This document shows positions 25,045 through 52,801 of a stretch of DNA of 64,000 nucleotides, in pieces. Origin of the DNA: Candidatus Omnitrophota bacterium (GTDB lineage: Bacteria; Omnitrophota; Gorgyraeia; Aquiviventales; Aquiviventaceae); the NCBI GenBank assembly GCA_023247255.1, contig JAHFGV010000005.1, positions 6,067 through 70,066 on the forward strand, in the 5' to 3' direction. The stretch's first letter is position 1. Each line of letters begins with the position of its first letter. A program made the position numbers and the translations under genes. The notes under the pieces are model-generated. The model was given only the letters and a program-made list of their open reading frames with translations. It did not search any database and had not been told where the DNA came from.

Positions 25045-25056
25045 TGACGTACGTCA
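25045..25056. promoter_or_regulatory. perfect palindrome TGACGTACGTCA (candidate operator), 50 nt upstream of the hemerythrin-like gene
   Basis: TGACG-N2-CGTCA followed by TAGAAGG. Related copies at 24884-24895, 39822-39833 and 43308-43327. Confidence 0.35.
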
Positions 25057-25107
25057 TAGAAGGATTCCCTGTTGAGCGCTACAGTTAGATATGAAAGGAG
25101 GCGCAGG

Positions 25108-28118: not shown

Positions 28119-28130
28119 AGGAGACGCCTC

Positions 28131-30191: not shown

Positions 30192-30634
30192 TGTGTCCTC
30201 GTCAGCCCCTCAGTCGCCGGGTTTTCCTGGCGCTTTGCCTCAGGGGTGGTGGGCTTGCCCTGCTTGGGGCTGCGCTCTATCCCATCCTGCGGTATCTCTA
30301 TCCTCCCCGAGGCGTTGAATCCTCCGTCTCCAGCGTTGCGGCGGCGAAGGTGGGGGATCTGGCGACGAATACCGCGAAGATCTTCCGGTTCGGCAGTCGG
30401 CCCGGCCTCCTCATTCGTTCCCCCCAAGGCGAGCTCAAAGCCTTCTCGGCGGTGTGCACCCACCTCAACTGCACCGTTCAGTACGACAGCGACGCGAGCA
30501 TCATCTGGTGCGCCTGCCACAACGGCAAGTATGACTTAAACGGACAGGTCATCTCCGGCCCTCCCCCACGACCACTCGATGCCTACCAGGTGAACGTCCG
30601 CGGAGAAGACATCATCGTCTCCAAGACGTCCTAG
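30191..30634 (+). CDS. Rieske [2Fe-2S] protein
   Basis: TAT-like SRRVFLALCL. Rieske boxes CTHLNC and CACHNGKYD. About 147 aa. ATG overlaps the upstream stop. Confidence 0.8.
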   Translation: MCPRQPLSRRVFLALCLRGGGLALLGAALYPILRYLYPPRGVESSVSSVAAAKVGDLATNTAKIFRFGSRPGLLIRSPQGELKAFSAVCTHLNCTVQYDSDASIIWCACHNGKYDLNGQVISGPPPRPLDAYQVNVRGEDIIVSKTS

Positions 30635-30638
30635 CCTG

Positions 30639-31709
30639 ATGGGGTACTTCGAGCACCTACGCGCATTCTTGCATGAGCGCTACCGGCTGGGTGGCCTAGT
30701 GGATCTCGCCACGCATAAGACGGTCCCCATCCACCGCCACAGCGTCTGGTACTACTGGGGCGGCATGACGCTCGTGCTCATCGGCATCCAGATCATCAGC
30801 GGTGTGCTGCTGTTGCTGTACTACCGCCCATCAGCCCAGGAAGCCTTCGAGTCGGTTCGCTTCCTCATGACGCGGGTGCAATTCGGGTGGCTGGTGCGCT
30901 CCGTGCACGCGTGGGCGGCGAACCTGGCGATCTTCTGCGCGATGGTGCATCTGGCCAGCGTCTTTTTCCTGAAGGCGTATCGGCCACCCCGTGAACTGAC
31001 CTGGGTGACCGGGGTTGTGTTGTTGTTTCTGCTATTTGGTTTCGGATTTACCGGCTACCTCCTGCCGTGGAATACGCTGGCGTTTTTCGCCACCAAGGTC
31101 GGCACGGAAATCGCGGGGATTGTGCCCGTCGTCGGGCCTGTCGTTCAAATCTTTCTGCGCGGTGGAAGCGACGTTGGGGATGTGACGATCACGCGGTTCT
31201 TTTGGCTTCATGTCGCAATCCTGCCAATCGGCCTGATGACACTCTTAAGCCTTCATCTGCTCATGATCCAGCTCCAGGGCATGAGCAAACCGCCTTGGGT
31301 TAAGAGCAATCGGTCCATGCCGTTCTTTCCGAATTTTTTCCTGCGCGATCTGGTTGCCTGGTCACTCATACTGGGGATAGTGCTGTGTGTGAGCGTGCAC
31401 TGGCCCGCGACGCTCGGCGAAAAGGCCGATCCGTTCGCTCCGACACCCGTGGGCATCCAACCGGAATGGTATTTTCTCTGGATGTTTCAGACGCTCAAGA
31501 TTTTCCCTGGCCACCTGTTTGGTCTCGAGGGTGAGTTAGTCGCGGTGGGATTGACCGGACTGGCGGGTCTTGCGCTGCTACTCGTTCCATGGCTGGATCG
31601 CCCCGCCCGACGGGAGCAATCATCCTGGCTGGTATGGGCTGTTGGCGTGTTGGGCATTGCCTATGTCGTCGGGATGACCGGCTACGCGCTATGGGTGAAA
31701 CCTCACTGA
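30639..31709 (+). CDS. cytochrome b (fused b6 / subunit IV type)
   Basis: 356 aa. His ligands lie in TM helices (VHAWAANLAIFCAMVHL, WLHVAILPIGLMTLLSLHLLMIQ). PEWYFL motif present. Confidence 0.85.
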   Translation: MGYFEHLRAFLHERYRLGGLVDLATHKTVPIHRHSVWYYWGGMTLVLIGIQIISGVLLLLYYRPSAQEAFESVRFLMTRVQFGWLVRSVHAWAANLAIFCAMVHLASVFFLKAYRPPRELTWVTGVVLLFLLFGFGFTGYLLPWNTLAFFATKVGTEIAGIVPVVGPVVQIFLRGGSDVGDVTITRFFWLHVAILPIGLMTLLSLHLLMIQLQGMSKPPWVKSNRSMPFFPNFFLRDLVAWSLILGIVLCVSVHWPATLGEKADPFAPTPVGIQPEWYFLWMFQTLKIFPGHLFGLEGELVAVGLTGLAGLALLLVPWLDRPARREQSSWLVWAVGVLGIAYVVGMTGYALWVKPH

Positions 31710-32995
31710 TGACAGGGTATCGTCTACGGGTGGCACTCGGACTTCTGCTGTGCCCTGGCTTTGTGTGGTCGGCTGAGAAGCCGAATAGTTGTGTCGAGTG
31801 CCACAAGCAGGTGGAGGGCCAAACGCGAGGGCCGGCCACACTGGCTGCAGAGGACGTGCATTTCCAGCGAGGCTTGTCCTGCGTGGATTGCCATGGCGGC
31901 GATCCAACAGCGATGGATCCTCAAGCCGCGATGGACCCGGCTAAAGGGTTCCTCGGTCGCCCGAGGCGGGAGCAGATTCCCCAGTTTTGCGCCCGGTGCC
32001 ACGCGGATCCGGCCACCATGCGCAAGTACAATCCCAATCTTCCGACTGACCAATACGCGAAGTACCTGACCAGTCAGCACGGGAAGCGCTTCAGTGTTGG
32101 CGATGCCGATGTGCCGGTCTGCATCAGTTGCCACGAGGCGCACGGCATCCGCTCGAAAAAAGACCCAGCCTCGCCGGTCTACCCGACGAACATCCCCGGA
32201 ACCTGCGCGAGCTGCCACAGCGACGCGTCGATCATGGACAAACACGGCTTGCCGGTGAACCAGCACTGGGACTACTCGCAGAGCGTCCACGGCCAGGCGC
32301 TGTTGTTCCGTGGCGATCGTGCGGCTCCCCATTGCGCGAGCTGCCACGGATCGCACGAAGCGGCCAAACCTAGGACGGTCGCAATCGGCAACGTCTGCGC
32401 TCAGTGCCATAGCCTCACGCGCGATCTGTTTGCAAAGAGTCCCCACAAGGCCGCGCATGAAGCCTTAGGGCTTCCGGAGTGCGAGGTCTGCCACGGCAAT
32501 CACCTGATCCGCAAGCCAAGCGACGAGATGCTTGGGACGGGACAAGATGCGGTGTGTGTCAGTTGTCACGAGCCAGGGTCGACCGGCTACGTCACCGCGC
32601 AGCAGATGCGCAGCGCCATCGAGCAACTGAAAACCCACATGGCCAGCGCTGAGGCAGCCGTCAGGCACGCAGCGGAGTTGGGCATGGATGTCGGTGACGC
32701 GGAATTTGAGCTTCGCGAGGCGATGACCCAACTCACGCAAGAGCGCACCTACGTCCACTCTTTCTCCGCCGCAACCATGGAACCCATTGCCGAGGAGGGA
32801 ACTCACCACGCCCTGCGGGCCGAGGGGCAAGCCCGCCAGGCGATCCGTGAGTTTCATTTCCGCCGTCAGGGCTTGTGGGTCACCCTGATCATTCTCGCCC
32901 TCGTGGTTTCTGGACTCCTTCTGAAGATTCGAGACTTGGAGCGATCGGACTCGACAGACAAGATGGACGACACATCCCCTCGCGACTCCTCGTAA
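31709..32995 (+). CDS. multiheme (about 9 heme) cytochrome c with C-terminal membrane anchor
   Basis: Signal peptide, then nine CxxCH motifs and a C-terminal TM helix WVTLIILALVVSGLLLKI. Start overlaps the cytochrome b stop. Confidence 0.75.
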   Translation: MTGYRLRVALGLLLCPGFVWSAEKPNSCVECHKQVEGQTRGPATLAAEDVHFQRGLSCVDCHGGDPTAMDPQAAMDPAKGFLGRPRREQIPQFCARCHADPATMRKYNPNLPTDQYAKYLTSQHGKRFSVGDADVPVCISCHEAHGIRSKKDPASPVYPTNIPGTCASCHSDASIMDKHGLPVNQHWDYSQSVHGQALLFRGDRAAPHCASCHGSHEAAKPRTVAIGNVCAQCHSLTRDLFAKSPHKAAHEALGLPECEVCHGNHLIRKPSDEMLGTGQDAVCVSCHEPGSTGYVTAQQMRSAIEQLKTHMASAEAAVRHAAELGMDVGDAEFELREAMTQLTQERTYVHSFSAATMEPIAEEGTHHALRAEGQARQAIREFHFRRQGLWVTLIILALVVSGLLLKIRDLERSDSTDKMDDTSPRDSS

Positions 32996-33032
32996 AATCT
33001 GCCATTTCCGGCTATGATATCTGCGGAGCATC

Positions 33033-34550
33033 ATGAACCACACATCGATGCCAAAACCCCCCAGCCTCTTGCGCAACCCGCTGAGCTTTTTCGGCCTCGC
33101 CGTCGCCATCACGAGCACGGCGTTTGGCCTGCCCATGATGTTCGTCGACATGTTCAGTCGACGCACGCATCCGTATCTTGCTGTGCTCGTTTATCTCGTG
33201 CTGCCGTTCGTTGCAGCAGGCGGCGTCGGCTTAGTCCTGCTTGGAGCATTGTGGGAACGCCGTCGAAGACGCCGACGGCCTGGCATGGTAGTGCCACCCC
33301 TGCCATCCATCGATCTCAATCGAAGCGCCCACCAGATTGCTGTGGCTGGAGCACTCACAACGTTCATGACTATTGTGGCCATGCTCTCCGTGACCGGCTA
33401 CCGGGCGTACCACTTTACGGAGTCGGTCAAATTCTGCGGCCTGGTCTGTCACCAGGTGATGAAACCGGAGTATACGGCGTATCAGTATTCTCCGCATGCG
33501 CGCGTGGCCTGCACCCAGTGCCATGTCGGGCCTGGTGCAAGCTGGTTCGTGCGCTCAAAGATCACAGGAGCGTATCAGGTTTACGCGGTTACATTCAACA
33601 AGTACCCGCGCCCGATTCCCACACCCGTGAAGAGCCTGCGTCCGGCGCAAGAAACTTGCGAGCAATGCCACTGGCCGGCGAAGTTTTTTGGCGCGCAGCA
33701 GAAAACCTTCACGCACTACATGGCGGATGAGCACAACAGCCCGTGGCAGATTCAGATGCTGCTGAAAATCGGCGGCGGCGATCCGTCGGTTGGCGCTCCT
33801 GCGGGCATTCACTGGCACATGAACATCAAGAACGATATTTATTACATTGCCTCAGATGAGCAGCGGGAAACCATTCCGTGGGTGCGCGTGGTCGAGCCGC
33901 AGGGACGCATCGCCGAATATATGTCGATGGAAAGTCCGCTCTCGCCGGAGCAGATCGTAAAGAGCGAAGTGCGCCGCATGGACTGCGTGGATTGCCACAA
34001 CCGGCCCTCCCACATCTTTCGACCGCCGGATCGTGCGGTGGAGGAGGCCTTCGAGACCGGCCGGCTAGAGCGGTCCCTGCCGTATCTGAAGCGCGAAGCC
34101 ATAAGGTTGTTGGCGCAAGAGTACCCCTCGGAGGAGCAGGCGTTATCAGCCATCCTGAAAGGCTTGGCCGAGTTCTACCAGAAGGACTATCCAGAGGTGT
34201 ATCGCGAACAGGCAGTCGCTATTCAACAGGCCACAGCTGAGTTGCAACGCATCTATTCGAGGAATTTCTTTCCCGAGATGCGCGCCGATTGGCGCGCCCA
34301 TCCCAACCACATGGGCCATCTAAATGCCGAAGGCTGCTTCCGCTGCCACGATGGGCTGCACAAAAACCGCGAGGGCAAGGTGCTAACCAAAGACTGTACC
34401 GCCTGTCACACGATCTTGGCCCAGGGGCCACCTGAGGAGGTGGCGCAAGCCAAGCTTGAAGCGCAGCCGTTTCGCCACCCGGTCGACGTGGGGATGGACG
34501 TGACGGAATTTAAGTGCAGCCAGTGTCATACCGGCACGAGCGGTCTCTAG
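33033..34550 (+). CDS. inner-membrane heptaheme cytochrome c (NapC/NirT-superfamily, ImcH-like)
   Basis: Three N-terminal TM helices followed by seven CxxCH motifs. 505 aa. Confidence 0.6.
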   Translation: MNHTSMPKPPSLLRNPLSFFGLAVAITSTAFGLPMMFVDMFSRRTHPYLAVLVYLVLPFVAAGGVGLVLLGALWERRRRRRRPGMVVPPLPSIDLNRSAHQIAVAGALTTFMTIVAMLSVTGYRAYHFTESVKFCGLVCHQVMKPEYTAYQYSPHARVACTQCHVGPGASWFVRSKITGAYQVYAVTFNKYPRPIPTPVKSLRPAQETCEQCHWPAKFFGAQQKTFTHYMADEHNSPWQIQMLLKIGGGDPSVGAPAGIHWHMNIKNDIYYIASDEQRETIPWVRVVEPQGRIAEYMSMESPLSPEQIVKSEVRRMDCVDCHNRPSHIFRPPDRAVEEAFETGRLERSLPYLKREAIRLLAQEYPSEEQALSAILKGLAEFYQKDYPEVYREQAVAIQQATAELQRIYSRNFFPEMRADWRAHPNHMGHLNAEGCFRCHDGLHKNREGKVLTKDCTACHTILAQGPPEEVAQAKLEAQPFRHPVDVGMDVTEFKCSQCHTGTSGL

Positions 34551-34627
34551 GCCTGCCCGCCTGTCGTCCAAAAGTGTGATCTGGGTCATAGTTCGTCTCC
34601 CTGCGTTCTGAGAAGATTACTTAGGCG

Positions 34628-36183
34628 ATGGGGGAGGCTCTGACGAGAAACGGCGGACGGATACGGCGCGTAGCGCTCTGCGCGCTCTTCACGTGCTGGA
34701 CCTGGGCGCCGCGGGCCATGGGAGAGGGCAGCGTCTCTCCAGCCGCGCAAGAGATCGACAACGCTGCCTGTCTGGCTTGCCATGGTGATCCCTCGGCAAT
34801 CCGCTTTGTGGACCACGCGAAGTTCGAGGCTTCCGTCCATGGGAGTTTTTCCTGCACTACCTGCCACGCGGATGTCGTCACCATTCCCCATGACGTGCCG
34901 CTGGAGTCGATCAGTCAGTCGCAGATCCCCCTCACGTGCGGCCAGTGCCATGAAGACATCAAGGCTGCCTACCAGCGGAGTATCCACGCTCAGGCGGTCG
35001 CCGCCGGCAAGCGCCATGCGCCCGTCTGCACCGACTGCCATGGTGAGCACTATGTGGCCCCGGTGAAAACGGAGGCGTCGAAAGTGTTTCCCTCGCACAT
35101 CCCGCAGACGTGCGCACAGTGCCACGCGGCGGAGCGCATCGTTACGAAGTATCGGTTGCCGGCGTACGTGGTCGATACGTACATGAGCAGCTTCCACGGC
35201 CTCATACACCAACTGGGATCCGTGACGGCCGCGAACTGCGCCTCCTGCCACGGGGCGCATGACATTCTCCCCGCGAACGACGAGCGTTCCTCGGTCAATC
35301 CGAAGAACCTGCCGAAAACCTGTGGCTCCTGCCATCCGGGCGTCGGCGCGTTCGTCGCACAGGGAAAGATTCACTCCGGCACACAGCCCGGAGCGGAACA
35401 TCCTGCGGTGACATTCGTTCGCCGGTTCTACCTCATCCTCATCGGTTTGGTCATTGGGGGCATGCTGATTCACAACGGTCTCGATTTCCGCAAAAAACTC
35501 TCGATCCATTACCAACGGATGGCCGCCAGCAGCGCGGTACAACGGATGAGTCTTAATGAGCGCCTTCAACATGGCGTGCTCTTGATCGCCTTTGCGACGC
35601 TCGCCTATACCGGATTTGCGTTAAAGTTCCCGCATGTCTGGTGGGCACGCCCCTTCATGGGCCGCGTCGACTGGCGCCGCCTGGGGCATCGGGGAGCGGC
35701 GGTCGTCTTCTGCCTGCTCGCCGGCTACCACCTCTGGTTCATGACGTGCACGAAACGGGGGCGGAGCGAGTTGCGCGCCTTGCGACCCGAACGAGCCGAC
35801 TTCACGCACCTGAGACGGATGCTCGGCTTCTATCTGGGTAGGAGCCGGGAGCAGCCGCGCGCGGCGCGGTACAGCTACGTGGAGAAAGCGGAGTATTGGG
35901 CGCGGTCTGGGGTTCAGTCATCATGGTGCTCACCGGCGGTCTGATGACCTGGCAGAATTGGACATTGCGCTTCCTGCCCAAGTGGGCGTTCGATGTTTTT
36001 ATCACGGTGCATTTTTATGAAGCACTCCTCGCATGCTTGGCGATCCTTATTTGGCACCTCTACTTCGTCATGTACGATCCCGATGAATACCCGATGAAGT
36101 GGACGTGGATCAGCGGCAAGGCCTCACCCACCGACGAGGCACATCGGCATCCAGGCGACGCCGAGGAAGGCAATCCAGGCTGA
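34628..36183 (+). CDS. CbcL-like fusion of a heptaheme cytochrome c with a FdnI/HydC-type di-heme cytochrome b (interrupted by a frameshift near 35897)
   Basis: Seven CxxCH motifs, then TM helices with conserved His (RFYLILIGLVIGGMLIHNG, HGVLLIAF, HRGAAVVFCLLAGYHLW). The reading frame shifts -1 at the tattgggcgcgg G-run and continues as VWGSVIMVLTGGLMTW ... HFYEALLACLAILIWHLYF. Confidence 0.6.
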
Positions 36184-36269: not shown

Positions 36270-38051
36270 ATGACACCCTTCGTCCGATTCCTTGGATCGC
36301 TGAGCATCGCGGTGCCGCTGCTGATCGTGATTGCCCTGGTGCTCGCATGGGGCACCATCTATGAAACCCGCTTTGGCACGGCGGCGGTTCAGCGCTTTGT
36401 CTACCACGCGTGGTGGTTTCAAGCGCTCCTCGGCTTTCTGGCGATCAACCTCGCCGTGGCTGCGCTCGAGCGCTATCCGTGGCAGCGTCGACACCTGCCG
36501 TTTGTCCTGGCCCACATCGGCATCATCCTCATCCTGATTGGGGGGATTATCGGAGCCCGATTCGGCATCGAGGGTCAGATGATCATTCCGGAAGCTCAGG
36601 CCGAGCGCGTCCTCGAGCAGCCAGGCAATGTCCTTGTAGTGCGCCAGCCAAACCCGGGTCTATCTATCATCATCCCCACGCAGTTTGAAACGCAGGCCTG
36701 GGTGCATGAGCCGAACGCGACCTTTCCCGTGACTCTCGATGGCCGGACGATTGCGCTCACCGTCGACCGCTACTATCCCGACGCGGTGACGGATGAAGAA
36801 ATCACAAGCGGTGGCGCTGAGGACAATCCGGCTCTCCACATGCTGCTTACGCACAACGAGCAGCAGGATGCGGTGTGGCTCATGAGCAGGGACTCTGAGC
36901 GTTTTGGTATGGGCTGGGGTGAGGCGCACGTGCTCTTCCTTGAACCAAGAACTGCTTCTGAAGTCGATCGGCTTACTGGGGCTGGGCGCTCACCTGGCGT
37001 CGCGTCTGCGCGAGGCGTGATCGTTATCCGCCTACCCGGGATGCATGCGCCACGCGAGATTCCGGTTCCCGATGAGCGCAACCGATCCGTCGACGTCACA
37101 GGCACGCCCTATCAGATCATCTTCAAGGATTACTTTCCCGATTTTGCGATTACCGAACAGGGGATCGTGAGCCGCTCGCTTGAGGCCAATAACCCTGCGG
37201 TTTCTTTCATCATCACCGGACCCGAGGGAACCGATGCGTATTTGCTGTTTGCGCTCCATCCCGATTTTCAAACGATCCATGGCTTCGAACATAAGATCGA
37301 CGCCCAGGTGAGTTATACCCACACCGCCAGCGCTGCGCTGCCTCCCAATTGTATCGGGCTCATCCGTGCACCATCAGGAACCTTAATCGGTATCTTGACC
37401 GGCAGCGGGACCGATCGATCCGTGATCAATCCGCTGGAACTTGGCAAACGGTACACCCACCCTTCGCTCGGCTATCAGTTTGAAGTCGCCACGTACTATC
37501 CCCGTGCGGTTCTCACGCAGCACGTCACCAACCGAGGAGATGAAATCAAAGCCGAAACGCTTCATCTCGTGGGACGTGAAGGTGATCAGAGCGCAGAGGC
37601 GTGGTTGGGTTTGCGCGGCTCGGCAGAATTCGCGTTGGGAAAGGAGCCGGTTACGATTGAGTACCGACCGGCCCGATGGGAGCTGCCGTTTACCATCAAG
37701 CTCTTGGACTTTCGCAAGATCGACTATCCAGGAACGCAGATGGCCTCGGCGTTTGAAAGCGACGTGGAGCTCACCGATTCTCAGCGGGGTGTCATCCTGA
37801 TGCGCAAGATTACGATGAACAACCCCCTGCGCTACCGCGGGTTTAGCGTGTACCAATCCAGCTACATCGAAGGCCCGACGGAAACCACAGTGCTCTCGGT
37901 GCGCAATGATCCAGGAACCCCATTTGTTTATGCGGGGTTCATCATTGTGATCGCCGGCGTCGTCAGTATGTTTGTGCTCGGCACCCCCTCCACGACCGCA
38001 ACCCCTCCGCCTTCGATCCGGCGAGTACGCAGAAGGAGCCGCTCTTCATGA
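36270..38051 (+). CDS. ccsB: cytochrome c biogenesis protein ResB/CcsB
   Basis: 593 aa with N-terminal TM helices, a large soluble domain and a C-terminal TM. ResB-like. Confidence 0.8.
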   Translation: MTPFVRFLGSLSIAVPLLIVIALVLAWGTIYETRFGTAAVQRFVYHAWWFQALLGFLAINLAVAALERYPWQRRHLPFVLAHIGIILILIGGIIGARFGIEGQMIIPEAQAERVLEQPGNVLVVRQPNPGLSIIIPTQFETQAWVHEPNATFPVTLDGRTIALTVDRYYPDAVTDEEITSGGAEDNPALHMLLTHNEQQDAVWLMSRDSERFGMGWGEAHVLFLEPRTASEVDRLTGAGRSPGVASARGVIVIRLPGMHAPREIPVPDERNRSVDVTGTPYQIIFKDYFPDFAITEQGIVSRSLEANNPAVSFIITGPEGTDAYLLFALHPDFQTIHGFEHKIDAQVSYTHTASAALPPNCIGLIRAPSGTLIGILTGSGTDRSVINPLELGKRYTHPSLGYQFEVATYYPRAVLTQHVTNRGDEIKAETLHLVGREGDQSAEAWLGLRGSAEFALGKEPVTIEYRPARWELPFTIKLLDFRKIDYPGTQMASAFESDVELTDSQRGVILMRKITMNNPLRYRGFSVYQSSYIEGPTETTVLSVRNDPGTPFVYAGFIIVIAGVVSMFVLGTPSTTATPPPSIRRVRRRSRSS

Positions 38052-39709
38052 AACGCGCCTTTATGACGATTATGACGATGGCGTTATTGTTCGGAGCCTT
38101 GGCGAGATTTATGAGCGTATTCGCAGATCAGCCCGTTGCCCTGCCGCGCGAGGCGCTCGAGACCATACGTCGCATGGCCATCCAACACAATGGACGCAAC
38201 AAACCCTTCGACAGCTTTGCGCGAGAAACCCTCCGACTCATCACCGGCTCAGCGCGCGTGGGAAATGAAGATCCTGTCGAAACCATCTTGACCCTCATGG
38301 CCAGTCCCGACCATGGGCAGCAGTTGCTGCTTGTGTCGGTTCCATTTATCCCTCTGCGAAAGGCTCTGGGCATGGATCCCAAGGCGACGCAGGTGTCCTA
38401 CAACGATTTGGTTGCGACACGCAAGCTCATGCGGCTGCTGCCCCCGATTGTCCAAAAGCAGCAGCGCGAAGAGAAACTTTCGATGCTGGAAGAAGAGACG
38501 ATGGATGTCTTCCAGCGATTTGCCACCCTGAGCACTCTGCTCGAGCAAAAGCTCAACCTCGTGCCTCCACCTGTTGGATCTGCAGAGCGTGTGTGGCAGC
38601 TTGTTGAGGAGCCGTCGGGCTATGCGCCAGCGCAGCAAGAGACCATTCGTACCGCATGGTCCGGGCTGATCGGTGCGGTGCAAGCTGGGCGGGGCGATGC
38701 GGTGATTACCTCAGCGCGTCATGCGGCAGATGCGCTGCGAGATCTGAGCCCTTCTCGCTATCCTCCTCGGTGGCGATTAGCGTTCGAGGTGTTCTACAAC
38801 CACGTCGCGCCATTTCGAATCGCCCAAGGGTTCTATCTGCTCTCAGCGATCCTGTTGTTTCTGAGCCTTGGCGCATTGAAGAAATTCCGGCCAGCGCTTT
38901 TGGGATTTGTCGCTTGCTGCTTCGCGTTTCTCGCGCATGGATCAGGTATCCTGATGCGCGTTGTTCTGGGTGAGCGTCCGCCGGTCTCGAATTTTTTTGA
39001 GACCACGCTGTGGCTGCCGTTCGTCGCAGTCGCCATTGCGCTCATCCTGGAACGTGTGTACCGGACTCGTTACATCGCCCTGGCTGCGGCGATCCTTGCG
39101 ACAATCACCCTGGTTCTCGCGGATCATCTGCCGCTGGACTCGAGCATCTCTCCGGTGGTCGCCGTGCTCCACAGCAATCTCTGGTTGACGATTCACGTGT
39201 TGACCATCGTGGCGAGCTACGGCGCGCTGACCCTGGCGATTGTGCTGGCGCACATGTATGGGGGGATGTACCTGAGTCGCCGCACGAGCGGCTCAACGTT
39301 AGATGCGTTGGGGACATTTCTCTATCGCGTCATCCAAGTCGGCGTCGTGTTATTGGCGGCGGGGATCATGCTGGGCGCCGTGTGGGCCAACGCCTCTTGG
39401 GGCCGTTACTGGGGCTGGGATCCGAAAGAGACCTGGGCGTTGATTACCCTCATCTGGTTCCTGGCGCTGCTGCACGGACGCTTCGCCGGATGGATCAGCG
39501 GTGTTGGCGTAGCCCTGTGCACCGTCGGCGGATTTTTTCTGCTGCTGATGACCTACTACGGTGTCAGCTTCTATCTCGTCGGTCTGCACAGCTATGCCGG
39601 TGCTCATGCCAAGCCCTTGCCCCCAGTTCTCATCGCCTACCTCATCGCTGAACTGGCGTTCATCATCGTGGTGAGCGTCTCAGCCATACTCCGCAGGCGG
39701 CCAGCGTAG
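38048..39709 (+). CDS. ccsA: cytochrome c biogenesis protein CcsA/ResC
   Basis: WWD motif WANASWGRYWGWDPKETWAL. 553 aa with a long N-terminal extension. Confidence 0.85.
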   Translation: MKRAFMTIMTMALLFGALARFMSVFADQPVALPREALETIRRMAIQHNGRNKPFDSFARETLRLITGSARVGNEDPVETILTLMASPDHGQQLLLVSVPFIPLRKALGMDPKATQVSYNDLVATRKLMRLLPPIVQKQQREEKLSMLEEETMDVFQRFATLSTLLEQKLNLVPPPVGSAERVWQLVEEPSGYAPAQQETIRTAWSGLIGAVQAGRGDAVITSARHAADALRDLSPSRYPPRWRLAFEVFYNHVAPFRIAQGFYLLSAILLFLSLGALKKFRPALLGFVACCFAFLAHGSGILMRVVLGERPPVSNFFETTLWLPFVAVAIALILERVYRTRYIALAAAILATITLVLADHLPLDSSISPVVAVLHSNLWLTIHVLTIVASYGALTLAIVLAHMYGGMYLSRRTSGSTLDALGTFLYRVIQVGVVLLAAGIMLGAVWANASWGRYWGWDPKETWALITLIWFLALLHGRFAGWISGVGVALCTVGGFFLLLMTYYGVSFYLVGLHSYAGAHAKPLPPVLIAYLIAELAFIIVVSVSAILRRRPA

Positions 39710-43586: not shown

Positions 43587-43760
43587 ATGTTTGGGAATAT
43601 TGGGTTTCCAGAGCTGTTGGTGATTTTGTCGATCGTGCTCCTCCTCTTTGGGGCCAAGCGGCTGCCGGAGATTGCGCGTGGCTTGGGGAAGTCGCTCTCT
43701 GAATTCAAGAAGGGACTGAAGGAGATCGAGCACGACGTCAACGATGTCAAGAAGGTCTGA
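43587..43760 (+). CDS. tatA: twin-arginine translocase subunit TatA/E
   Basis: 57 aa [49 protein letters not shown] ggaaggagg. Not in the supplied ORF track because it is under 60 aa. Confidence 0.7.
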
Positions 43761-43766
43761 GCGAAG

Positions 43767-45365
43767 GTGGCGGCTCCGGTCAACCGGCCGATGACGGAAG
43801 CGTTGAGGATGCGTCTCGGTATGCTGATTGCGGTGGTTGCGCTAGGCTCAGGGTGCGCCAAGGAGCCATCCGCAACACTCTCGAGCGCGAAACCGTCTGT
43901 GACCCCGCAGATCGTTGAAATGGGCCGGCGGCTTTACAACAAGCAGTGCGCGGTCTGTCATGGCCCGAAGGGCGCGGGCGACGGCCAGGCAGCTTACCTC
44001 CTCTATCCTAAGCCGCGCGATTTCACACAAAACGAATTCCGACTTGTCTCGACCAGCACGATGCAGGCCACCGATGAAGATCTGTTTCTCACCATTACCC
44101 GTGGGACGCCCGGCTCCGCGATGCCCTCCTGGGAGACGCTGACGTCGGAGCAGCGCTGGGCGTTGGTGTATTACGTTCGCCACCTCACGGGTGCGAGCGA
44201 ATCCATTGATCCAGCCTCAATCATCCACGTCCCTCCAGAGACGCCGAAGACCCCCGAGAGCATCGCGCGTGGCCGCCAAATTTTTGTCCAGGCGTGCGCG
44301 TCCTGCCATGGGCCACAAGGCCGCGGTGATGGGCAGCAGGTCATGGCGGACAACGCCGGATATCCTATCAAGCCACGCGATCTCACCGCAGGCGTCTTTA
44401 AGGGGTCGTCTGAGAGCAACGATTTGTATTACCGAATTGTCGCTGGATTGCCGGGCAGCCCGATGCCAAGTTACGCTGACGTCTACACCGACGAGCAGTT
44501 GTGGGATCTCATCCACTACGTTCAATCGCTCGTACCGTCGGGAGTCGAGGATCGCGTCCGCATGCATGCACGGAGCATCCGCGCCCATCGGGTCAGAGGC
44601 GACATCCCATTAGAACCGACAGCGAAAATCTGGAGCACGAGACAACCGGTCTCTATCGCCCTCACACCATTGTGGTGGCGCGATCACCGAGTCGAAGGGG
44701 TCGAGGTCAAAGCGTTGCACAACGGCAAAGAGCTCGCGCTTCAATTGTCATGGAACGACCAGACGCGTGACAACTCGACCCTCACCCCGCAGGCGTTTTC
44801 CGATGGTGTCGCGGTAGAATTCTCCTTAGAACAGGACCCGCCGTTCTTTGGGATGGGTGACGCAAACGGAGTCGTGCAGATATGGCACTGGAAAGCCTCC
44901 TGGCAGGAGGACCTCAAGGGCTGGCAGGACGTGGAGACCGCCTACCCCAATGCTGCCGTGGATTGGTATCCCGCACAGCGTGACTATCAGCACGGTGAAC
45001 CCTCCGAGGTGAGCCAGTCGAGGACGGCCTCGCAGGACCCACGGTTCATGGGCGGATGGGGAGCGGGCAATCCCCTCTCCGATCCGAATCGAACGTCAGC
45101 GGCTGAGGAAGCGATGGCCAAGGGATTGGGGACGCTGACCTCACGCGCACCTTCGATGCAACGGATCCAAGCGGATGGTCTCTGGCAAGACGGTCGGTGG
45201 CAGGTCGTGCTGCATCGACCGCTTGCGCCCAACGAGGAGGGGGATCTGAGGCTGAAGCCTGGGCAGCAAGTCAGCGCGGCGTTTGCGATCTGGGATGGCC
45301 ATGCCGGGGATCGCAACGGCCAAAAGAGCGTGTCGATTTGGAACATCTTGGAGCTGGAGCGATAG
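43767..45365 (+). CDS. dihaem cytochrome c fused to an NxrC/EbdC-like (DMSO-reductase type II gamma subunit) domain
   Basis: Two CxxCH motifs (CAVCHGPKGAGDGQ, CASCHGPQGRGDGQ) in tandem cytochrome c domains. The C-terminal roughly 250 aa (WWRDHRVEGVEVKALHNGKELALQLSWND ... VQIWHWKASWQ) resembles the ethylbenzene dehydrogenase / NxrC gamma family. Confidence 0.6.
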   Translation: MAAPVNRPMTEALRMRLGMLIAVVALGSGCAKEPSATLSSAKPSVTPQIVEMGRRLYNKQCAVCHGPKGAGDGQAAYLLYPKPRDFTQNEFRLVSTSTMQATDEDLFLTITRGTPGSAMPSWETLTSEQRWALVYYVRHLTGASESIDPASIIHVPPETPKTPESIARGRQIFVQACASCHGPQGRGDGQQVMADNAGYPIKPRDLTAGVFKGSSESNDLYYRIVAGLPGSPMPSYADVYTDEQLWDLIHYVQSLVPSGVEDRVRMHARSIRAHRVRGDIPLEPTAKIWSTRQPVSIALTPLWWRDHRVEGVEVKALHNGKELALQLSWNDQTRDNSTLTPQAFSDGVAVEFSLEQDPPFFGMGDANGVVQIWHWKASWQEDLKGWQDVETAYPNAAVDWYPAQRDYQHGEPSEVSQSRTASQDPRFMGGWGAGNPLSDPNRTSAAEEAMAKGLGTLTSRAPSMQRIQADGLWQDGRWQVVLHRPLAPNEEGDLRLKPGQQVSAAFAIWDGHAGDRNGQKSVSIWNILELER

Positions 45366-45367
45366 CC

Positions 45368-48300
45368 ATGTATCTGACGCGTCGTCAGTTTTTAAAACTC
45401 TCAGGAGCTACTGGAATCGGGTTGTATCTCGCCTCACGCGAGGTCTCGCTCTGGGCGCTGGAGCCGGTGAGCGAGATAGAGAATCCGCTCGCCTACTATC
45501 CTTCGCGAGACTGGGAGAAGCTCTACCGCGACCAGTACCGGTATGACAGCACCTTCTCCTGGGTCTGCTCGCCCAACGACACGCACGCCTGCCGGGTCCT
45601 GGCGTACGTGAGAAACGGCGTCGTGGTGCGTCTTGGCTCAGAGTACAACTATGAAACCTACGCCGACCTGTACGGAAACAAGGCCACTCCCAACTGGAAC
45701 CCGCGCCAGTGCGCCAAAGGTTTCACCTTTCATCGGCTCATCTACGGTCCTTACCGCTTGAAACATCCCATCATCCGTAACGGTTGGAAGCGCTGGGCCG
45801 ACGACGGATTCCCAACGCTGACCCCTGAGAAAAAGACACAATACAAGTTTGACTCGCGCGGCACAGACACTTTTGAAAAAATCAGTTGGGAGGATATCTA
45901 CGGCTACATTGCCCGCGGCCTCATCGCTATCGCTACGCGCTACAGCGGCGAGCCGGGCATAACACTCCTGCGCGCACAGGGCTATCCCGAGGAAATGATC
46001 CAAGCGATGGGTGGGGCCGGGACACGGACCTTGAAGTTCCGCGGCGGGATGGGCCTGCTTGGGGTGTTTGGCAAGTACGGCATGTACCGACTGGCGAACA
46101 CGATGGCGCTTCTCGATGTCCACCTGCGCGGTGTCAAGCCTGAGGAGGCGAAGGCCGGACGGACGTGGTCCAACTACACGTGGCACGGCGATCAGGCGCC
46201 GGGGCATCCCTGGGTGCATGGATTGCAGAACGCCGACTGCGATTTCAACGACCTTCGTTTTTCCAAGCTGATCATCCAGGACGGCAAGAACCTCTGCGAG
46301 AACAAGATGACCGACTCGCACTGGTTCATTGAATGTATGGAGCGTGGGGCAAAGCTGGTGACGATCGCGCCCGAATACAGCCCGCCGGCGTCGAAGTCGG
46401 ACTATTGGATTCCGATTCGCCCGCAGACCGATGCCGCGCTCTTCTTGGGTATCACGCGCCTCATGATCGACCGAGGCTGGTACGACCGGGAGTTTATCCT
46501 GAACTTCACCGACTTTCCGCTCTTGGTGCGAACCGACACCCTGCGGCGCCTTCGAGCGAATGAGATCCTGCCGGGCTACCAAGGGCAGTTGTCCAAGGAC
46601 GGCCCAAGCTACAAGCTCCAGGGATTGAAGGACGAGCAGTATGCCAAGTTGGGGGACTTCGTCGTCTGGGATGAATCCTCCGGAGCGCCCGCCGCAATCA
46701 CACGCGACGACGTCGGCAAGCGTCTCGTACAGAAAGGCGTCCACCCCGCGCTTGAAGGGACGTTTACACTCAACACGGTGGATGGGAAGCGTATTGAGGT
46801 GATGACGCTCTTTTCGCTCTATCAACTCCACCTCAAGGACTACGACCTTGATACCGTGCATGAGATCACTCGCGCGCCGAGAGAGCAGATCGAACAACTC
46901 GCGAAGGACATCGCCACTATCTCGCCAGTCGCGATCCACCAAGGCGAGGGCATCAACCACTACTTCCACGCCACCGAGGCCAATCGCGCCGCCTATCTGC
47001 CGCTGATGCTGACCGGCAACATCGGCCAACGCGGTGCTGGCTGCTACGGATGGGCCGGCAACTACAAGGCTGCGCTTTTCCAAGGCTCTCCATGGACCGG
47101 TCCGGGATTCAAAGGCTGGGTGGCCGAGGATCCGTTTGAGCCTAACCTTGACCCCAACGCGCACGGGAAAGACATCCACGCGCACGCCTACTTCAAGGAC
47201 GAAGAGCCGGCTTATTGGAACCACGGGGATAAGCCGCTGATCGTCGAGACGCCCAAGGGCGGCCGCAAGGTCTTCACCGGCAACACTCACATGCCCACAC
47301 CCACAAAGGCGATGCTTTTCACCAACGTGAACCTCATCAACAATGCCAAGTGGGTCTATGAGATGCTCAAGAACGTCAACCCGAATGTCGAGATGATCCT
47401 TTCTATCGACATCCAAATGACCGCTTCGATCGAATACGCGGACTTAGCACTGCCGGCGAATAGCTGGCTTGAGTTCGAGGGGCTGGAGGTTACGGCGTCA
47501 TGCTCCAACCCTTTCCTCCAGATCTGGAAGGGCGGGATTCCGCCTGTGTTCGACAGCCGGGATGATCTGGTGATTCTCGCCCAGATCGCCGAAGCGCTCG
47601 GCAAGGAAATCGGCGATACGCGCTGCAGCGACTACTGGAAGTTTGCGCTCGAGGGCAAGCGCGAAGTCTACATCCAGCGGCTGCTGGATTCCTGCACGAC
47701 GACGGTTGGCTATCGTCTGGAGGACATCATGGCGGGCAAGTACGGGCCGCCGGGGGCGGCACTCATGCTCTTTCGCACCTATCCCCGGATCCCCTTCTGG
47801 GAGCAGGTGCACGAGGACTTACCTTTCTACACCGACCACGGGAGGCTTTCGGCCTACACCGATGTGCCCGAGGCGATCGAGTACGGCGAGAATTTCATCG
47901 TCCACCGTGAAGGTGCGGAGGCGACACCCTACCTGCCGAACGTCATCGTCAGCAGCAACCCGTACATCCGCCCCAACGATTACGGTATTCCCTTATCGGC
48001 GGAGCACTGGGATGACCGCACGGTGCGCAACGTGAAGATGCCGTGGGATCAGGTCAAAGGCACAAAGAATTTCCTCTGGGAAAAGGGCTTTCAGTTTTAC
48101 TGTCTAACTCCCAAGAGCCGCCATCGCGTCCACTCGCTTTGGAGCAACGTGGACTGGCACCAAATCTGGGACTCCAACTTCGGCGATCCCTACCGGATGG
48201 ACAAACGCAGCCCTGGTGTTGGCGAACACCAGGTTCACATGAATCCCCAGGCGGCAAAGGATTTAGGGATCAATGACGGCGATTACGCCTATGTCGATGC

Positions 48301-48820
48301 GAATCCAGCAGATCGTCCCTACATTGGGGCGAAACCTGACGATCCGTTCTATCGGGTGGCGCGGCTGATGCTGCGTGTCAAGTACAACGCAGCCTACCCG
48401 TACAACGTCGTCATGATGAAGCACGGGACCTATATTGCCACCGAGAAATCTGTGAAGGCCCACGAGACGCGCAAGGATGGACGGGCCCTCTCCGCTGACA
48501 CCGGCTACCAGGCGAACTTCCGCTACGGGTCGCAGCAGAGTGTCACGCGCAACTGGCACATGCCGATGCACCAGACCGACTCACTCTTCCACAAGGCGAA
48601 GGTCTTCATGGGCTTTCTCTTCGGCGGCGAGGCGGACAATCACGCGGTCAACACGGTTCCGAAAGAGACGCTGGTGCGCGTGACGAAAGCGGAAGACGGC
48701 GGGTTGGGTGGCCAGGGCGTGTGGGCTCCGGCGACGACCGGCTATACCCCGGCCAACGAGAACGACACGATGAAGAAGTACCTCGAAGGCCGGTTCGTTG
48801 AGGAGAGCAAGAAATGGTAA
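45368..48820 (+). CDS. nxrA: periplasmic molybdopterin oxidoreductase alpha subunit, nitrite oxidoreductase/NarG-like (type II DMSO reductase family)
   Basis: 1150 aa with a twin-arginine signal MYLTRRQFLKLSGATGIGL. N-terminal Fe-S motif region (CSPNDTHAC). Large Mo-bisMGD domain. Size and neighbourhood (nxrB, narJ-like, nxrC-like) match a periplasmic NXR. Confidence 0.8.
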   Translation: MYLTRRQFLKLSGATGIGLYLASREVSLWALEPVSEIENPLAYYPSRDWEKLYRDQYRYDSTFSWVCSPNDTHACRVLAYVRNGVVVRLGSEYNYETYADLYGNKATPNWNPRQCAKGFTFHRLIYGPYRLKHPIIRNGWKRWADDGFPTLTPEKKTQYKFDSRGTDTFEKISWEDIYGYIARGLIAIATRYSGEPGITLLRAQGYPEEMIQAMGGAGTRTLKFRGGMGLLGVFGKYGMYRLANTMALLDVHLRGVKPEEAKAGRTWSNYTWHGDQAPGHPWVHGLQNADCDFNDLRFSKLIIQDGKNLCENKMTDSHWFIECMERGAKLVTIAPEYSPPASKSDYWIPIRPQTDAALFLGITRLMIDRGWYDREFILNFTDFPLLVRTDTLRRLRANEILPGYQGQLSKDGPSYKLQGLKDEQYAKLGDFVVWDESSGAPAAITRDDVGKRLVQKGVHPALEGTFTLNTVDGKRIEVMTLFSLYQLHLKDYDLDTVHEITRAPREQIEQLAKDIATISPVAIHQGEGINHYFHATEANRAAYLPLMLTGNIGQRGAGCYGWAGNYKAALFQGSPWTGPGFKGWVAEDPFEPNLDPNAHGKDIHAHAYFKDEEPAYWNHGDKPLIVETPKGGRKVFTGNTHMPTPTKAMLFTNVNLINNAKWVYEMLKNVNPNVEMILSIDIQMTASIEYADLALPANSWLEFEGLEVTASCSNPFLQIWKGGIPPVFDSRDDLVILAQIAEALGKEIGDTRCSDYWKFALEGKREVYIQRLLDSCTTTVGYRLEDIMAGKYGPPGAALMLFRTYPRIPFWEQVHEDLPFYTDHGRLSAYTDVPEAIEYGENFIVHREGAEATPYLPNVIVSSNPYIRPNDYGIPLSAEHWDDRTVRNVKMPWDQVKGTKNFLWEKGFQFYCLTPKSRHRVHSLWSNVDWHQIWDSNFGDPYRMDKRSPGVGEHQVHMNPQAAKDLGINDGDYAYVDANPADRPYIGAKPDDPFYRVARLMLRVKYNAAYPYNVVMMKHGTYIATEKSVKAHETRKDGRALSADTGYQANFRYGSQQSVTRNWHMPMHQTDSLFHKAKVFMGFLFGGEADNHAVNTVPKETLVRVTKAEDGGLGGQGVWAPATTGYTPANENDTMKKYLEGRFVEESKKW

Positions 48821-49541: not shown

Positions 49542-49818
49542 ATGCCGTATAAGGAACCCGAACCGGATGATCCTTTGGAGCTGACGGGAGTCGTCCTACC
49601 TGCTTCGGACGAGACGTCACTGAAGGAAATGGCCGTGTGTTTCGTCGAAGAGTTCCTGCGCGACGGCTGGTCGGATGAGCAGCTTCGTGCGATGTTCCGC
49701 AATCCCTACTACCGAGGTCCCTACCTCGTGTGGCGGCAGAAGGGCGATGCATACGTGGAGGCTGTGATCCAGGAAGTCCGTCACATCTGGCGCCCCAACG
49801 CAGCCGGAGGAGCGACTC

Positions 49819-49826
<8 letters not shown>
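49542..49826 (+). CDS. small hypothetical protein translationally coupled to nxrB
   Basis: 94 aa. Stop overlaps the nxrB start by 8 nt. No recognisable family. Confidence 0.35.
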
Positions 49827-51057
<1,231 letters not shown>

Positions 51058-51087: not shown

Positions 51088-51867
51088 ATGAATCCTACGA
51101 TAAATCTTCCTTCGGAAAATTTAATTGAGGACCTGCTGGCGAGAAGCGCCGTCTATCATGCGCTGTCGCTGCTGCTGCGCCATCCAGACGCGGCCGCCAT
51201 GAAGTGGCTGTCGATGCGGGAATATCAGCGGCTGGCTGAGGTCGTGGAGATGCTGACGAAGGAACGAAAGGGATCATTGCACGAGGCTGTGCGGTATATG
51301 ATGACGGCGTTCGAGGGGGTGTCGATTGCGGAGTGGACCCGCGACTATGAACGGATCTTCGGACACTCGGTCCAGAGCGCGGCGCCACCCTATGAACTGG
51401 AGTACGGCGAGGAGCACAGCCATCGGCAGCCGCAGGAGCTGGGCGATATCGCGGCATTCTATCGAGCGTTCGGCCTTCGCGTGGCCTTTGCCTCGCATGA
51501 GCGGATCGATCATATCGTCACGGAGTGCGACTTCATGCAGTACCTGCTCTATAAGCAAGCCTGTGCACTTGATGAGGGGAGCGAGGAGCGGGCGGATGTG
51601 TGCGAAACGGCAGCCCAGCAGTTCCTCGCTGATCACCTCGGTCGCTGGGGTCCGGCCTTTGCCCTAAGACTCTCGCGAGCGGCTGAGCAGAGAGTCTTGG
51701 GAGCGCTTGCCGATACGACCCTGGCATGGCTGGTGCAGGATTGCGAGCGTATGCAGGTGCCTACCGGATCACGCGACCTCCCGCTGCGACTGCCCAAGGA
51801 ACGGGATGAGGTGGGATGCGCAGCGTGCGCACCTCAGCAGCTAGGAAATACTGATGGCAAGCGTTGA
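51088..51867 (+). CDS. NarJ/TorD-family redox enzyme maturation chaperone
   Basis: 259 aa. LARSAVYHALSLLLRHPD ... AAFYRAFGL ... is the TorD/NarJ helical fold signature. Confidence 0.6.
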   Translation: MNPTINLPSENLIEDLLARSAVYHALSLLLRHPDAAAMKWLSMREYQRLAEVVEMLTKERKGSLHEAVRYMMTAFEGVSIAEWTRDYERIFGHSVQSAAPPYELEYGEEHSHRQPQELGDIAAFYRAFGLRVAFASHERIDHIVTECDFMQYLLYKQACALDEGSEERADVCETAAQQFLADHLGRWGPAFALRLSRAAEQRVLGALADTTLAWLVQDCERMQVPTGSRDLPLRLPKERDEVGCAACAPQQLGNTDGKR

Positions 51868-52801
51868 TGTCCAGTTTGATCCAGCATTTGTGGAAGAGAC
51901 GGTTTTCCTTGAATTGAGGAACCGGGAAGCCCTCGGCAATTGCGCGATGGCGCAGGCGTTTCATGTACAGCGCAGCGCCCTCTATGACACCACGACCGCA
52001 ACAGGCGAGCGCGAGGCGCGATTTCAGCAGCTGGCAGCCCGCTATTTCCAGGAGCTTGGATTCTCCGAGCTCTTTGCGAAACGGTTCGAAGAGTTTCCGC
52101 TGATCGGAGCGCATGTTCCTGTTGCGCTGGTGCGACGCGCCTGGAGCCGCAAGGAAGAGCGCGTTGAGTTATACGTTCCCCCTACGCCCGGTGGGGGCTC
52201 AAGCCTCAAAGCTTTTCCGACGCTGTGGATCGGTTTTCAGGTCGCCCGGTGCTTAAATCGCGAGCAGCTCGTGGCGTTCCTGCGGCATGAGCTCATGCAC
52301 ATCTCTGATATGTTTGACCCGGCGTTCGGGTACCAACCGCATCCAGACTTCGGCGCGGAGTGTGAAACAGAAGAGGACCTAATCCGTAAGCGCTTCCGAT
52401 TGCTGTGGAACCTCGTTGTGGATGGGCGGATGCGCCGGAAGGGCTGGCCGGCCGTTGACCATGGAACGACACGTCTTCGGGAGTTTGAGCGGGCGTTTGC
52501 CTCCTGGGACCCGCAGCGCCGCGAGGCGGTGTGGCCGGATCTTGGCAACCGAGCATCCTGCACGCAACGTGAGCTCCTGGAACTGGCGAAGGACGAACGT
52601 CTCACCCGGATGCTGGGGCAAGGCGGCGTTCGCTGCCCCTTGTGCCATTTTCCGACGCGGGAGGGCGTGTGCGATTGGCGTGGCGAACGCGCGGCTGTTG
52701 CTGAAGCGATCCAAACGGATTACGCCTGGTGGGATCCGGTTCAGGGAGCATGCCGGCAGTGCTTCGAGTTGTATCGCGCAAGGCTACCGGTGATGGGATG
52801 A
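51854..52801 (+). CDS. hypothetical HExxH-motif protein with C-terminal Cys-rich zinc ribbon
   Basis: FLRHELMHISDMF (HExxH) and C-terminal CPLCHFPTREGVCDW ... CRQC. SprT-like metalloprotein is a possibility. Confidence 0.4.
   Translation: MASVDVQFDPAFVEETVFLELRNREALGNCAMAQAFHVQRSALYDTTTATGEREARFQQLAARYFQELGFSELFAKRFEEFPLIGAHVPVALVRRAWSRKEERVELYVPPTPGGGSSLKAFPTLWIGFQVARCLNREQLVAFLRHELMHISDMFDPAFGYQPHPDFGAECETEEDLIRKRFRLLWNLVVDGRMRRKGWPAVDHGTTRLREFERAFASWDPQRREAVWPDLGNRASCTQRELLELAKDERLTRMLGQGGVRCPLCHFPTREGVCDWRGERAAVAEAIQTDYAWWDPVQGACRQCFELYRARLPVMG

Follow-up and report, generated by a model that had tools for sequence, protein, structure and literature searches.

How a periplasmic nitrite oxidoreductase (NXR) exchanges electrons with the respiratory chain is the question raised by a stretch of DNA of 64,000 nucleotides (nt) from a Candidatus Omnitrophota bacterium (contig JAHFGV010000005.1, positions 6,067 to 70,066), hereafter the window, in which a gene encoding two cytochrome c domains and one haem b domain in a single polypeptide, hereafter gamma, directly precedes nxrA. 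In the enzyme of Kuenenia stuttgartiensis, the structure ends at the haem of NxrC with no known partner, and electrons cannot pass beyond this haem within the enzyme, a separate partner being needed at a surface cleft (Chicano et al., 2021). In Nitrospira, debate continues over both the true gamma subunit and the membrane anchor (Mundinger et al., 2019, PMC6606698). As presented below, the window gene quite probably encodes the gamma subunit of a periplasmic nitrite oxidoreductase / nitrate reductase of the Nitrospira/anammox type, where a dihaem cytochrome c is fused N-terminally to the haem b subunit, and gamma most likely acts as a three-haem module for the entry or exit of electrons.

The open reading frame (ORF) of gamma translates on the forward strand into 532 amino acids (aa) with zero internal stops, from either a GTG at 43767 or an ATG at 43791 (M9), the signal peptide being identical from both starts (Table 1). 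A gap of 2 nt separates its TAG stop (45363-45365) from the ATG of nxrA at 45368, as had been stated in an earlier sequence-only reading of this DNA, and the presence of a GGAG within the 3' end of the gamma gene, ahead of the nxrA start, together with this short gap makes translational coupling of the two genes likely. The sequence strings quoted in that reading were all retrieved from the translation, namely CAVCHGPKGAGDGQ (aa 61-74), CASCHGPQGRGDGQ (aa 177-190), WWRDHRVEGVEVKALHNGKELALQLSWND (aa 303-331) and VQIWHWKASWQ (aa 370-380). In addition, a separately assembled ENA contig (L001), which is 99.95% identical to the window over 21.6 kb, carries the same uninterrupted gamma gene with one difference (E128G); since the gene is intact in both assemblies, no frameshift or internal stop of the kind expected from an artefact was found.

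Table 1. Coordinates of the gamma gene, of its domains and of neighbouring features in the window
Feature	Position	Strand	Details
DDE transposase gene (DDE_Tnp_4)	21135-22136		between ATP synthase genes and respiratory island
Rieske protein, cytochrome b, multihaem c-type cytochromes	30062..35944	+	candidate membrane redox partner; putative link to gamma
ResB and CcsA, system II cytochrome c maturation	36270..39709	+	PF05140, PF01578
tatA	43587..43760	+	TIGR01411, E 2e-20; ends 6 nt before gamma; position kept in closest Omnitrophota loci
Fused gamma subunit gene	43767..45365	+	signal peptide, dihaem cytochrome c module and EB_dh haem b domain; 532 aa
Signal peptide ending ...VALGSG-C30	43767..43856	+	lipobox-like; alternative start ATG 43791
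Cytochrome c domain 1 (aa 47-141)	43905..44189	+	C61-x-x-C64-H65 at 43947-43961; distal Met119 at 44121-44123; Pfam
Cytochrome c domain 2 (aa 158-257)	44238..44537	+	C177-x-x-C180-H181 at 44295-44309; distal Met233 at 44463-44465; Pfam
EB_dh / NxrC-type haem b domain (aa 268-532)	44568..45362	+	ligands Met363 (44853-44855) and Lys520 (45324-45326); PF09459
nxrA, molybdopterin catalytic subunit	45368..48820	+	twin-arginine signal MYLTRRQFLK; matches 7b04_B
DUF2490 gene, signal-peptide-like N-terminus	48814-49521		between nxrA and p94; overlaps nxrA stop
p94, small ORF between nxrA and nxrB	49542..49826	+	no Pfam/NCBIfam match; syntenic in most related loci
nxrB, Fe-S subunit	49819..51057	+	7b04_A, 625 bits, E 8e-187; Fer4_11
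TorD/NarJ-like chaperone (NxrD)	51088..51867	+	PF02613, E 1e-19; TIGR03482, E 2e-22
p315, Cys-rich (C-terminus), after chaperone gene	51854..52801	+	no Pfam/NCBIfam match; syntenic across phyla
124-aa Fe-S protein	52798-53172		twin-arginine-like NRRTFLAS signal; weak Fer4_10 match in L001 annotation

The domain organisation of gamma is supported at several levels. Pfam recognised Cytochrom_C (PF00034, two stretches, 94.6 bits for a cutoff of 21.3, E 9e-27), Cytochrome_CBB3 (PF13442, two stretches, 84.1 bits for a cutoff of 27, E 9e-24) and EB_dh (PF09459, aa 306-521, 97.2 bits for a cutoff of 33.3, E 2e-27), scores that are far beyond chance, so that similarity to the EB_dh family is present in the C-terminal part. 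In both cytochrome c domains, the distal Met sits in a PGSxMP motif. Ten haem ligands are predicted, that is C61/C64/H65/M119 and C177/C180/H181/M233 for the two c haems and the pair M363/K520 for haem b, and all ten are invariant in 103 gamma relatives. When the window protein is considered along with 150 representatives of clusters at 50% identity, the ten ligands are all found in 127 of the 151 sequences, the shortfall being mostly due to truncated sequences; both haem b ligands are found in 139 of them and C61/C64/H65/M119 show no exception among the sequences covering these positions. The motifs bearing M363 (FFGMGD) and K520 (DRNGQKS) align with Met108/Lys201 of EbdC as well as with Met155/Lys305 of Kuenenia NXR-C, which are the haem b ligands of the latter (Chicano et al., 2021).

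Sequence alignment and structure prediction lead to the same relatives. Residues 47-257 of gamma align with residues 5-220 (of 226) of Kustc0457 (6h5l_B, E 5e-49), and residues 309-532 with Kuenenia NxrC (7b04_C, E 4e-30), the match to EbdC (2ivf_C, E 3e-13) being weaker. The AlphaFold2 model computed from the 103 relatives is confident, with a predicted local distance difference test (pLDDT) of 85 and a predicted template modelling score (pTM) of 0.82, and the top chains retrieved by Foldseek from the PDB are 7b04_C (template modelling (TM) score 0.76, E 3e-21), 6h5l_B (TM 0.88, 39% identity, root mean square deviation 2.2) and 2ivf_C (TM 0.82), TM scores being normalised to the target. The architecture put forward in the sequence-only reading, i.e. 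an EbdC/NxrC-like haem b domain preceded by two cytochrome c domains of class I, is therefore borne out by Pfam, by alignments and by the fold, and so is the conservation of a Met/Lys pair in the EbdC-like part. Carbohydrate-binding modules of the CBM9 type were also retrieved by Foldseek (E ~1e-5) and, as the loss of ligands in the alt_NxrC proteins considered further below indicates that the fold can persist without them, EB_dh could be conceived as a haem-free structural or docking module of CBM9/DOMON-type fold, leaving the two c haems alone as redox active. Such a role appears highly improbable given that Met363 and Lys520, together with their flanks FFGMG and DRNGQKS, are invariant and occupy the same positions as in the Kuenenia and EbdC structures.

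Far from being rare or artefactual, the fusion defines a large family. A word-indexed search with gamma returned >2265 matches, the best 120 of which all share the three Pfam domains, and a phmmer search over 1.84 billion cluster representatives yielded 1135 clusters (50% identity) at E<1e-30, almost all of the best 150 being 500-560 aa long with two CxxCH motifs. In GTDB data with one genome per species, 123 genomes encode a gamma relative; the taxonomic labels and the synteny counts given hereafter refer to the best 80 of them. These comprise 23 Omnitrophota, 20 genomes labelled as Planctomycetota, 18 Acidobacteriota, 4 Latescibacterota, 2 each of Gemmatimonadota, Hydrogenedentota and Binatia, as well as single representatives of Handelsmanbacteria, Krumholzibacteriia, Desulfobacterales and others, the carriers thus spanning about ten phyla of uncultured bacteria, and no cultured carrier was found among the named matches. 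The closest relatives of the window protein, at 66-82% identity, belong to groundwater Omnitrophota. With the survey in hand, an assembly or gene-calling artefact merging a cytochrome c gene with a separate nxrC, as might be feared for a metagenomic window in which one frameshift-like difference exists elsewhere (35903), has a practically negligible probability, since the ORF is continuous in a second assembly, in 123 species-representative genomes and in >1000 clusters from many sources, and since the polypeptide is modelled with confidence.

Synteny bears on the functional assignment. The nxrA gene lies directly downstream of the fused gamma gene in 75 of the 80 genomes (median gap 45 nt) and, among the five others, four contigs end too soon. 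The order gamma-nxrA-p94-nxrB-torD-p315 is complete in 33 of the 80 loci and recurs where the contig is long enough; it is repeated in two Pfam-annotated loci (L084 and L085), where a small Fe-S protein with a twin-arginine translocation (Tat) signal, tatA, moaA and tatC are added. The role of NXR gamma subunit, already proposed in the sequence-only reading, is thus strongly supported. Altogether, the finding is real, non-artefactual and strongly conserved, and the protein quite probably serves, from within the operon, as the gamma subunit of NXR-type enzymes that form a very widespread branch among uncultured bacteria and act in the periplasm.

Regarding characterised proteins, the nearest counterpart of the C-terminal part of gamma is the NxrC of K. 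stuttgartiensis (NXR-C, Kustd1704, 7B04 chain C), with which it shares the EB_dh fold, the aligned Met/Lys ligands and a C-terminal motif, DRNGQK..S.W..L.LER, their respective partners NxrA and NxrB being homologous as well (1848 and 625 bits). Identity between gamma and anammox NxrC amounts to 34-37% in the shared domain. However, anammox NxrC stands alone, with about 320 aa made of EB_dh only, no c haem being found in any of the 120 relatives listed, and its gene comes after nxrB, whereas the gamma gene of the window comes before nxrA; Kuenenia NxrC also requires a separate redox partner where gamma carries a fused cytochrome c. EbdC, the gamma subunit of ethylbenzene dehydrogenase (2IVF chain C), is also a soluble periplasmic haem b subunit of similar fold (TM 0.82), in which Met108/Lys201 correspond to M363/K520, and the likeness extends to the soluble haem b subunits of SerC/ClrC/DdhC type from type II dimethyl sulfoxide (DMSO) reductase enzymes. 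EbdC shows 21% identity, has no cytochrome c domains and is part of enzymes acting on other substrates.

The N-terminal module of gamma aligns over its whole length with Kustc0457 (6H5L chain B), the dihaem partner of the nitrite-reducing hydroxylamine oxidoreductase (HAO)-like protein Kustc0458, where it adds two 6-coordinate haems to the haem chain of the partner enzyme. Unlike gamma, Kustc0457 is a stand-alone polypeptide that associates with an octahaem enzyme. Its identity is higher with the dihaem modules of alt_NxrC (46.5%) than with those of the window clade (39.4%), and a specific Rosetta-stone link between the window dihaem module and Kustc0457, which had been contemplated, is weakened for this reason. 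Haloarchaea reportedly possess a periplasmic nitrate/nitrite molybdoenzyme, NarGH, that combines a Rieske/cytochrome b module with an EbdC-like haem subunit. The latter would receive its electrons from a bc-type complex, is not known to carry a fused cytochrome c and belongs with a different NarG lineage; the parallel is an analogy only, the window having a Rieske/cytochrome b cluster about 10 kb upstream.

Fusions of haem c with EB_dh are not new as such, since they are already on record under the name alt_NxrC. In Nitrospina, alt_NxrC proteins with 1-3 haem c sites and a DMSO-reductase-like haem b domain were described (Lucker et al., 2013, PMC3578206); in Nitrospira moscoviensis, two cytochromes c and a bd-like oxidase share a cluster with a dihaem alt_NxrC_2 that has a membrane helix (Mundinger et al., 2019, PMC6606698), and the same conserved alt_NxrC cluster was reported in genomes of Nitrospinae, Nitrospirae and anammox bacteria (Mueller et al.). 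The claim of the sequence-only reading that described NxrC are all stand-alone consequently holds for anammox NxrC (120 listed relatives) but not generally, owing to the alt_NxrC fusions of Nitrospina and Nitrospira. In the present data, the alt_NxrC family was identified via the gene neighbourhood in Scalinduaceae and via Nitrospinae-labelled members rather than from named Nitrospira or Nitrospina sequences. These proteins (P0253-like) are found in Methylomirabilis, Rokubacteria, Nitrospinae and Scalinduaceae, among the more distant matches of gamma, and in a Scalinduaceae locus (L082) the alt_NxrC gene stands between two cytochrome c genes and a bd-like oxidase, an arrangement that is duplicated, as published.

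Could gamma then be an alt_NxrC, serving a bd-like oxidase complex as an accessory membrane protein instead of being a core gamma subunit? Both share one polypeptide order, signal peptide, dihaem cytochrome c and EB_dh, and are homologous throughout, with about 40% identity in the dihaem module and about 32% in EB_dh. Yet alt_NxrC proteins form a separate clade, possess a C-terminal membrane helix in 98 of 120 cases where the window gamma ends in ...SIWNILELER without hydrophobic tail, and have Leu/Arg in place of the haem b Met and mostly Met in place of the Lys (P0253, P0491, P0490, P0410 and others) where gamma keeps the Met/Lys pair; their genes accompany those of two cytochromes c and a bd-like oxidase at a distance from nxrAB, whereas gamma is inside the nxr operon, 2 nt upstream of nxrA. 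No match to the bd-like oxidase family was found among the window ORFs scanned, and none in the related loci L084 and L085. Assignment of gamma to alt_NxrC is therefore very unlikely. From these ligand substitutions, haem b binding in alt_NxrC may differ from that of NxrC/EbdC. In a neighbour-joining tree of the EB_dh domains (based on distance only, with no bootstrap), the operon type, the alt type and anammox NxrC form three clades, approximately equidistant at 32-37% identity. Combining the domain order of alt_NxrC with the haem b site and operon linkage of true NxrC, the window gamma is a distinct third gamma type. What is new is thus a subtype, encoded in the operon, with haem b ligands kept and no membrane helix, which is apparently undescribed, as the literature on an operon-encoded fused gamma subunit (NxrC/NXR, Omnitrophota, EB_dh) returned nothing specific, only the alt_NxrC reports.

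As for the association of gamma with the membrane, nearly all full-length N-termini in the close clade (>=65% identity, i.e. at least 65%) were seen by inspection to end their hydrophobic stretch in [A/G]-C, GSGC in the case of the window, and 13 of 31 close-clade sequences fit a relaxed rule for lipoproteins akin to PROSITE PS51257. More distant gamma relatives lack this signal-peptide Cys. Within the close clade, gamma is thus probably lipid-anchored via Cys30, which would account for membrane association without a membrane helix.

Taken together, these features can be assembled into a tentative mechanism. Gamma would be exported by the Sec pathway and, in the close clade, lipid-anchored through Cys30, its two c haems being supplied by the ResB/CcsA system of the window and its b haem being ligated by Met363 and Lys520. 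NxrA, which bears a Tat signal, and NxrB would be exported with the aid of TatA/TatC, of the TorD-like chaperone and of the surrounding molybdenum cofactor genes. EB_dh would dock on NxrB as NxrC does in 7B04, placing haem b beside the terminal Fe-S cluster, from which the two His/Met c haems would extend the chain outward, between haem b and an external c-type partner. With a cytochrome c adaptor of its own, the enzyme would in this way connect to the pool of c-type cytochromes or to a Rieske/cytochrome b complex and, because the chain of the Kuenenia enzyme ends at the NXR-C haem, the fused cytochrome c would fill this gap. Such an intramolecular electron wire through the haems of gamma, as anticipated by the sequence-only reading, is plausible, and we infer lipidation, haem spacing, redox partner and direction of flow alike from the data above.

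Concerning the direction of electron flow, a mostly inward path, from quinol through Rieske/cytochrome b, c haems, haem b and Fe-S clusters to molybdenum in the course of low-oxygen respiratory nitrate reduction, is granted about an even chance. Inward flow is favoured because Crp/Fnr and hemerythrin genes lie by the operon in several genomes, with an anaerobic ribonucleotide reductase nearby in one (L084), and because the window ORFs scanned yielded no terminal oxidase, a Rieske/cytochrome b/multihaem cluster is present and the taxonomy of the carriers is that of non-nitrifiers. None of the carrier phyla, be it Omnitrophota, Acidobacteriota, Latescibacterota, Hydrogenedentota or the others, is a known nitrite oxidiser. 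In the window, Crp/Fnr and hemerythrin are encoded at 24117-25761, about 18 kb upstream of gamma; both are found immediately upstream of gamma in L085 (6788-9999), hemerythrin only in L084 (8875-9354), and a Crp homologue occurs within the fetched flank in 11 of the related loci searched. These genes hint at O2- or nitric oxide (NO)-responsive control of the operon. Alternatively, gamma could run outward, nitrite oxidation sending electrons from molybdenum through Fe-S clusters, haem b and c haems to a cytochrome c oxidase or into reverse electron transport, in which case the hosts would be unrecognised nitrite oxidisers. NxrA and NxrB are indeed most similar to those of anammox NXR, an in vivo nitrite oxidiser, Met/Lys-ligated haem b is described as high-potential (Chicano et al., 2021), and haem c groups in NxrC-like proteins have been argued to fit electrons of high potential coming from nitrite (Lucker et al., 2013, PMC3578206). 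This possibility is nonetheless rather doubtful in view of the regulatory and anaerobic genes adjoining the operon, of the terminal oxidase missing from the window ORFs scanned and of the host taxonomy, as well as of the reversibility of NXR in vitro (Chicano et al., 2021). A reversible use depending on conditions is for its part deemed unlikely.

Several observations weigh against the identity, anchoring or functioning proposed here for gamma. On TIGR03477 of NCBIfam, gamma scores 137.5 bits (E 4e-40), below the curated cutoff of 169.85, which fits a divergent and fused member. The strict lipobox L-[AS]-[GA]-C was found in none of the 31 close-clade sequences. All of the best 80 genomes are metagenome-assembled genomes, and the Rieske/cytochrome b complex is adjacent in only 3 loci. 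As to the preferred direction, the anammox NXR, which oxidises nitrite in vivo, is the closest characterised enzyme.

The surroundings of gamma complete the picture. The window nxrA and nxrB products match Kuenenia NXR over their full length, NxrA aligning with 7b04_B at 1848 bits and with 63% identity over the first 700 aa; with only such identity over this stretch, the idea that the clade is unusually close to anammox NXR was dropped. A Tat-signal NxrA, an NxrB and a TorD-like chaperone are all present, consistent with membership of the periplasmic NXR (Nitrospira/Nitrospina/anammox type). Downstream of the operon are moaA, moaC, moaB, moeA, mobB, tatC and mobA, and upstream are genes for ResB/CcsA, FeoB, the Rieske/cytochrome b and multihaem cytochromes, HemA, a Crp/Fnr regulator and a hemerythrin protein, in addition to ATP synthase and complex I genes. 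Given the nxr genes and the maturation, cofactor, Tat and respiratory-chain genes around them, the locus is a self-contained respiratory island centred on a periplasmic NXR-type enzyme. Among the small genes of the operon, the location of p94 and p315 is preserved in many related genomes from several phyla, and that of the 124-aa Fe-S protein in 16 of the searched related loci as well as in L084 and L085; the three look like uncharacterised NXR accessory factors. The DUF2490 insertion is found in the window and L001 only, being absent from the 80 related species-representative loci.

At 26853-35944 of the window, the genes for the Rieske protein, cytochrome b, a NapC/NirT-like cytochrome and several multihaem cytochromes, along with an unassigned ORF of 686 aa, make up a bc-type cluster that recalls the multihaem-rich Rieske/cytochrome b complexes of anammox bacteria; Rieske/cytochrome b homologues adjoin the nxr operon in L020 and L057. 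Within this cluster, the gene at 34628-35944, encoding a fusion of multihaem cytochrome c and cytochrome b561, shows a 1-nt deletion at 35903 relative to L001, shortening the product to 438 aa instead of 518 aa, which reflects either an error of the assembly or a genuine frameshift. At the start of nxrA, a perfect hairpin (CTGACGCGTCGTCAG) followed by a T-run was observed at 45374-45388, inside the Tat-signal codons; scans of the operon region for terminator-like sites and promoters gave counts at chance level. Of note, a CarboxypepD_reg / fn3_3 protein is encoded in the window (62500-63255) and in L057, L062, L070, L082 (4907-5701) and L083 (12246-12992); its gene lies directly upstream of the fused gamma gene in loci of Gemmatimonadota, Handelsmanbacteria and Latescibacterota, and adjoins alt_NxrC genes in those of Scalinduaceae and Nitrospinae, which suggests an unrecognised NXR-associated component.

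Regarding the electron hand-off from NXR to the respiratory chain, this clade offers a genetically explicit answer in the case of one large group of enzymes, a cytochrome c adaptor built into gamma, the membrane anchor of which may be a lipid. Going further, it could be envisaged, at a low probability, that the periplasmic NXR-type enzymes include a large undescribed branch across some ten uncultured phyla (Omnitrophota, Acidobacteriota, non-anammox Planctomycetota, Latescibacterota, Gemmatimonadota, Hydrogenedentota, Binatia and others), in which a lipid-anchored three-haem gamma would take the place of the stand-alone NxrC as well as of the soluble cytochrome c shuttle. If this is true and the enzymes are oxidative, many lineages not counted as nitrifiers would be nitrite oxidisers; if they are reductive, this would amount to a bacterial periplasmic nitrate respiration that is cytochrome-bc-coupled and energy-conserving. 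As a weaker corollary, the fact that one dihaem family has twice been fused to NxrC-like domains raises the possibility that, in anammox bacteria, the stand-alone dihaem Kustc0457 docks directly on NxrC; this would link NXR to the NO-forming nitrite reductase. In practical terms, sequence markers are now at hand for three gamma types, i.e. the stand-alone NxrC with Met/Lys kept, the operon three-haem type with Met/Lys kept and no membrane helix, and alt_NxrC with Met/Lys lost and a membrane helix. They should make for better annotation of metagenomic nxr genes, the proteins concerned being given at present no other label than c-type cytochrome. Beyond annotation, the gamma family constitutes a tractable target for establishing the direction in which these widespread NXR-type enzymes operate in nature.

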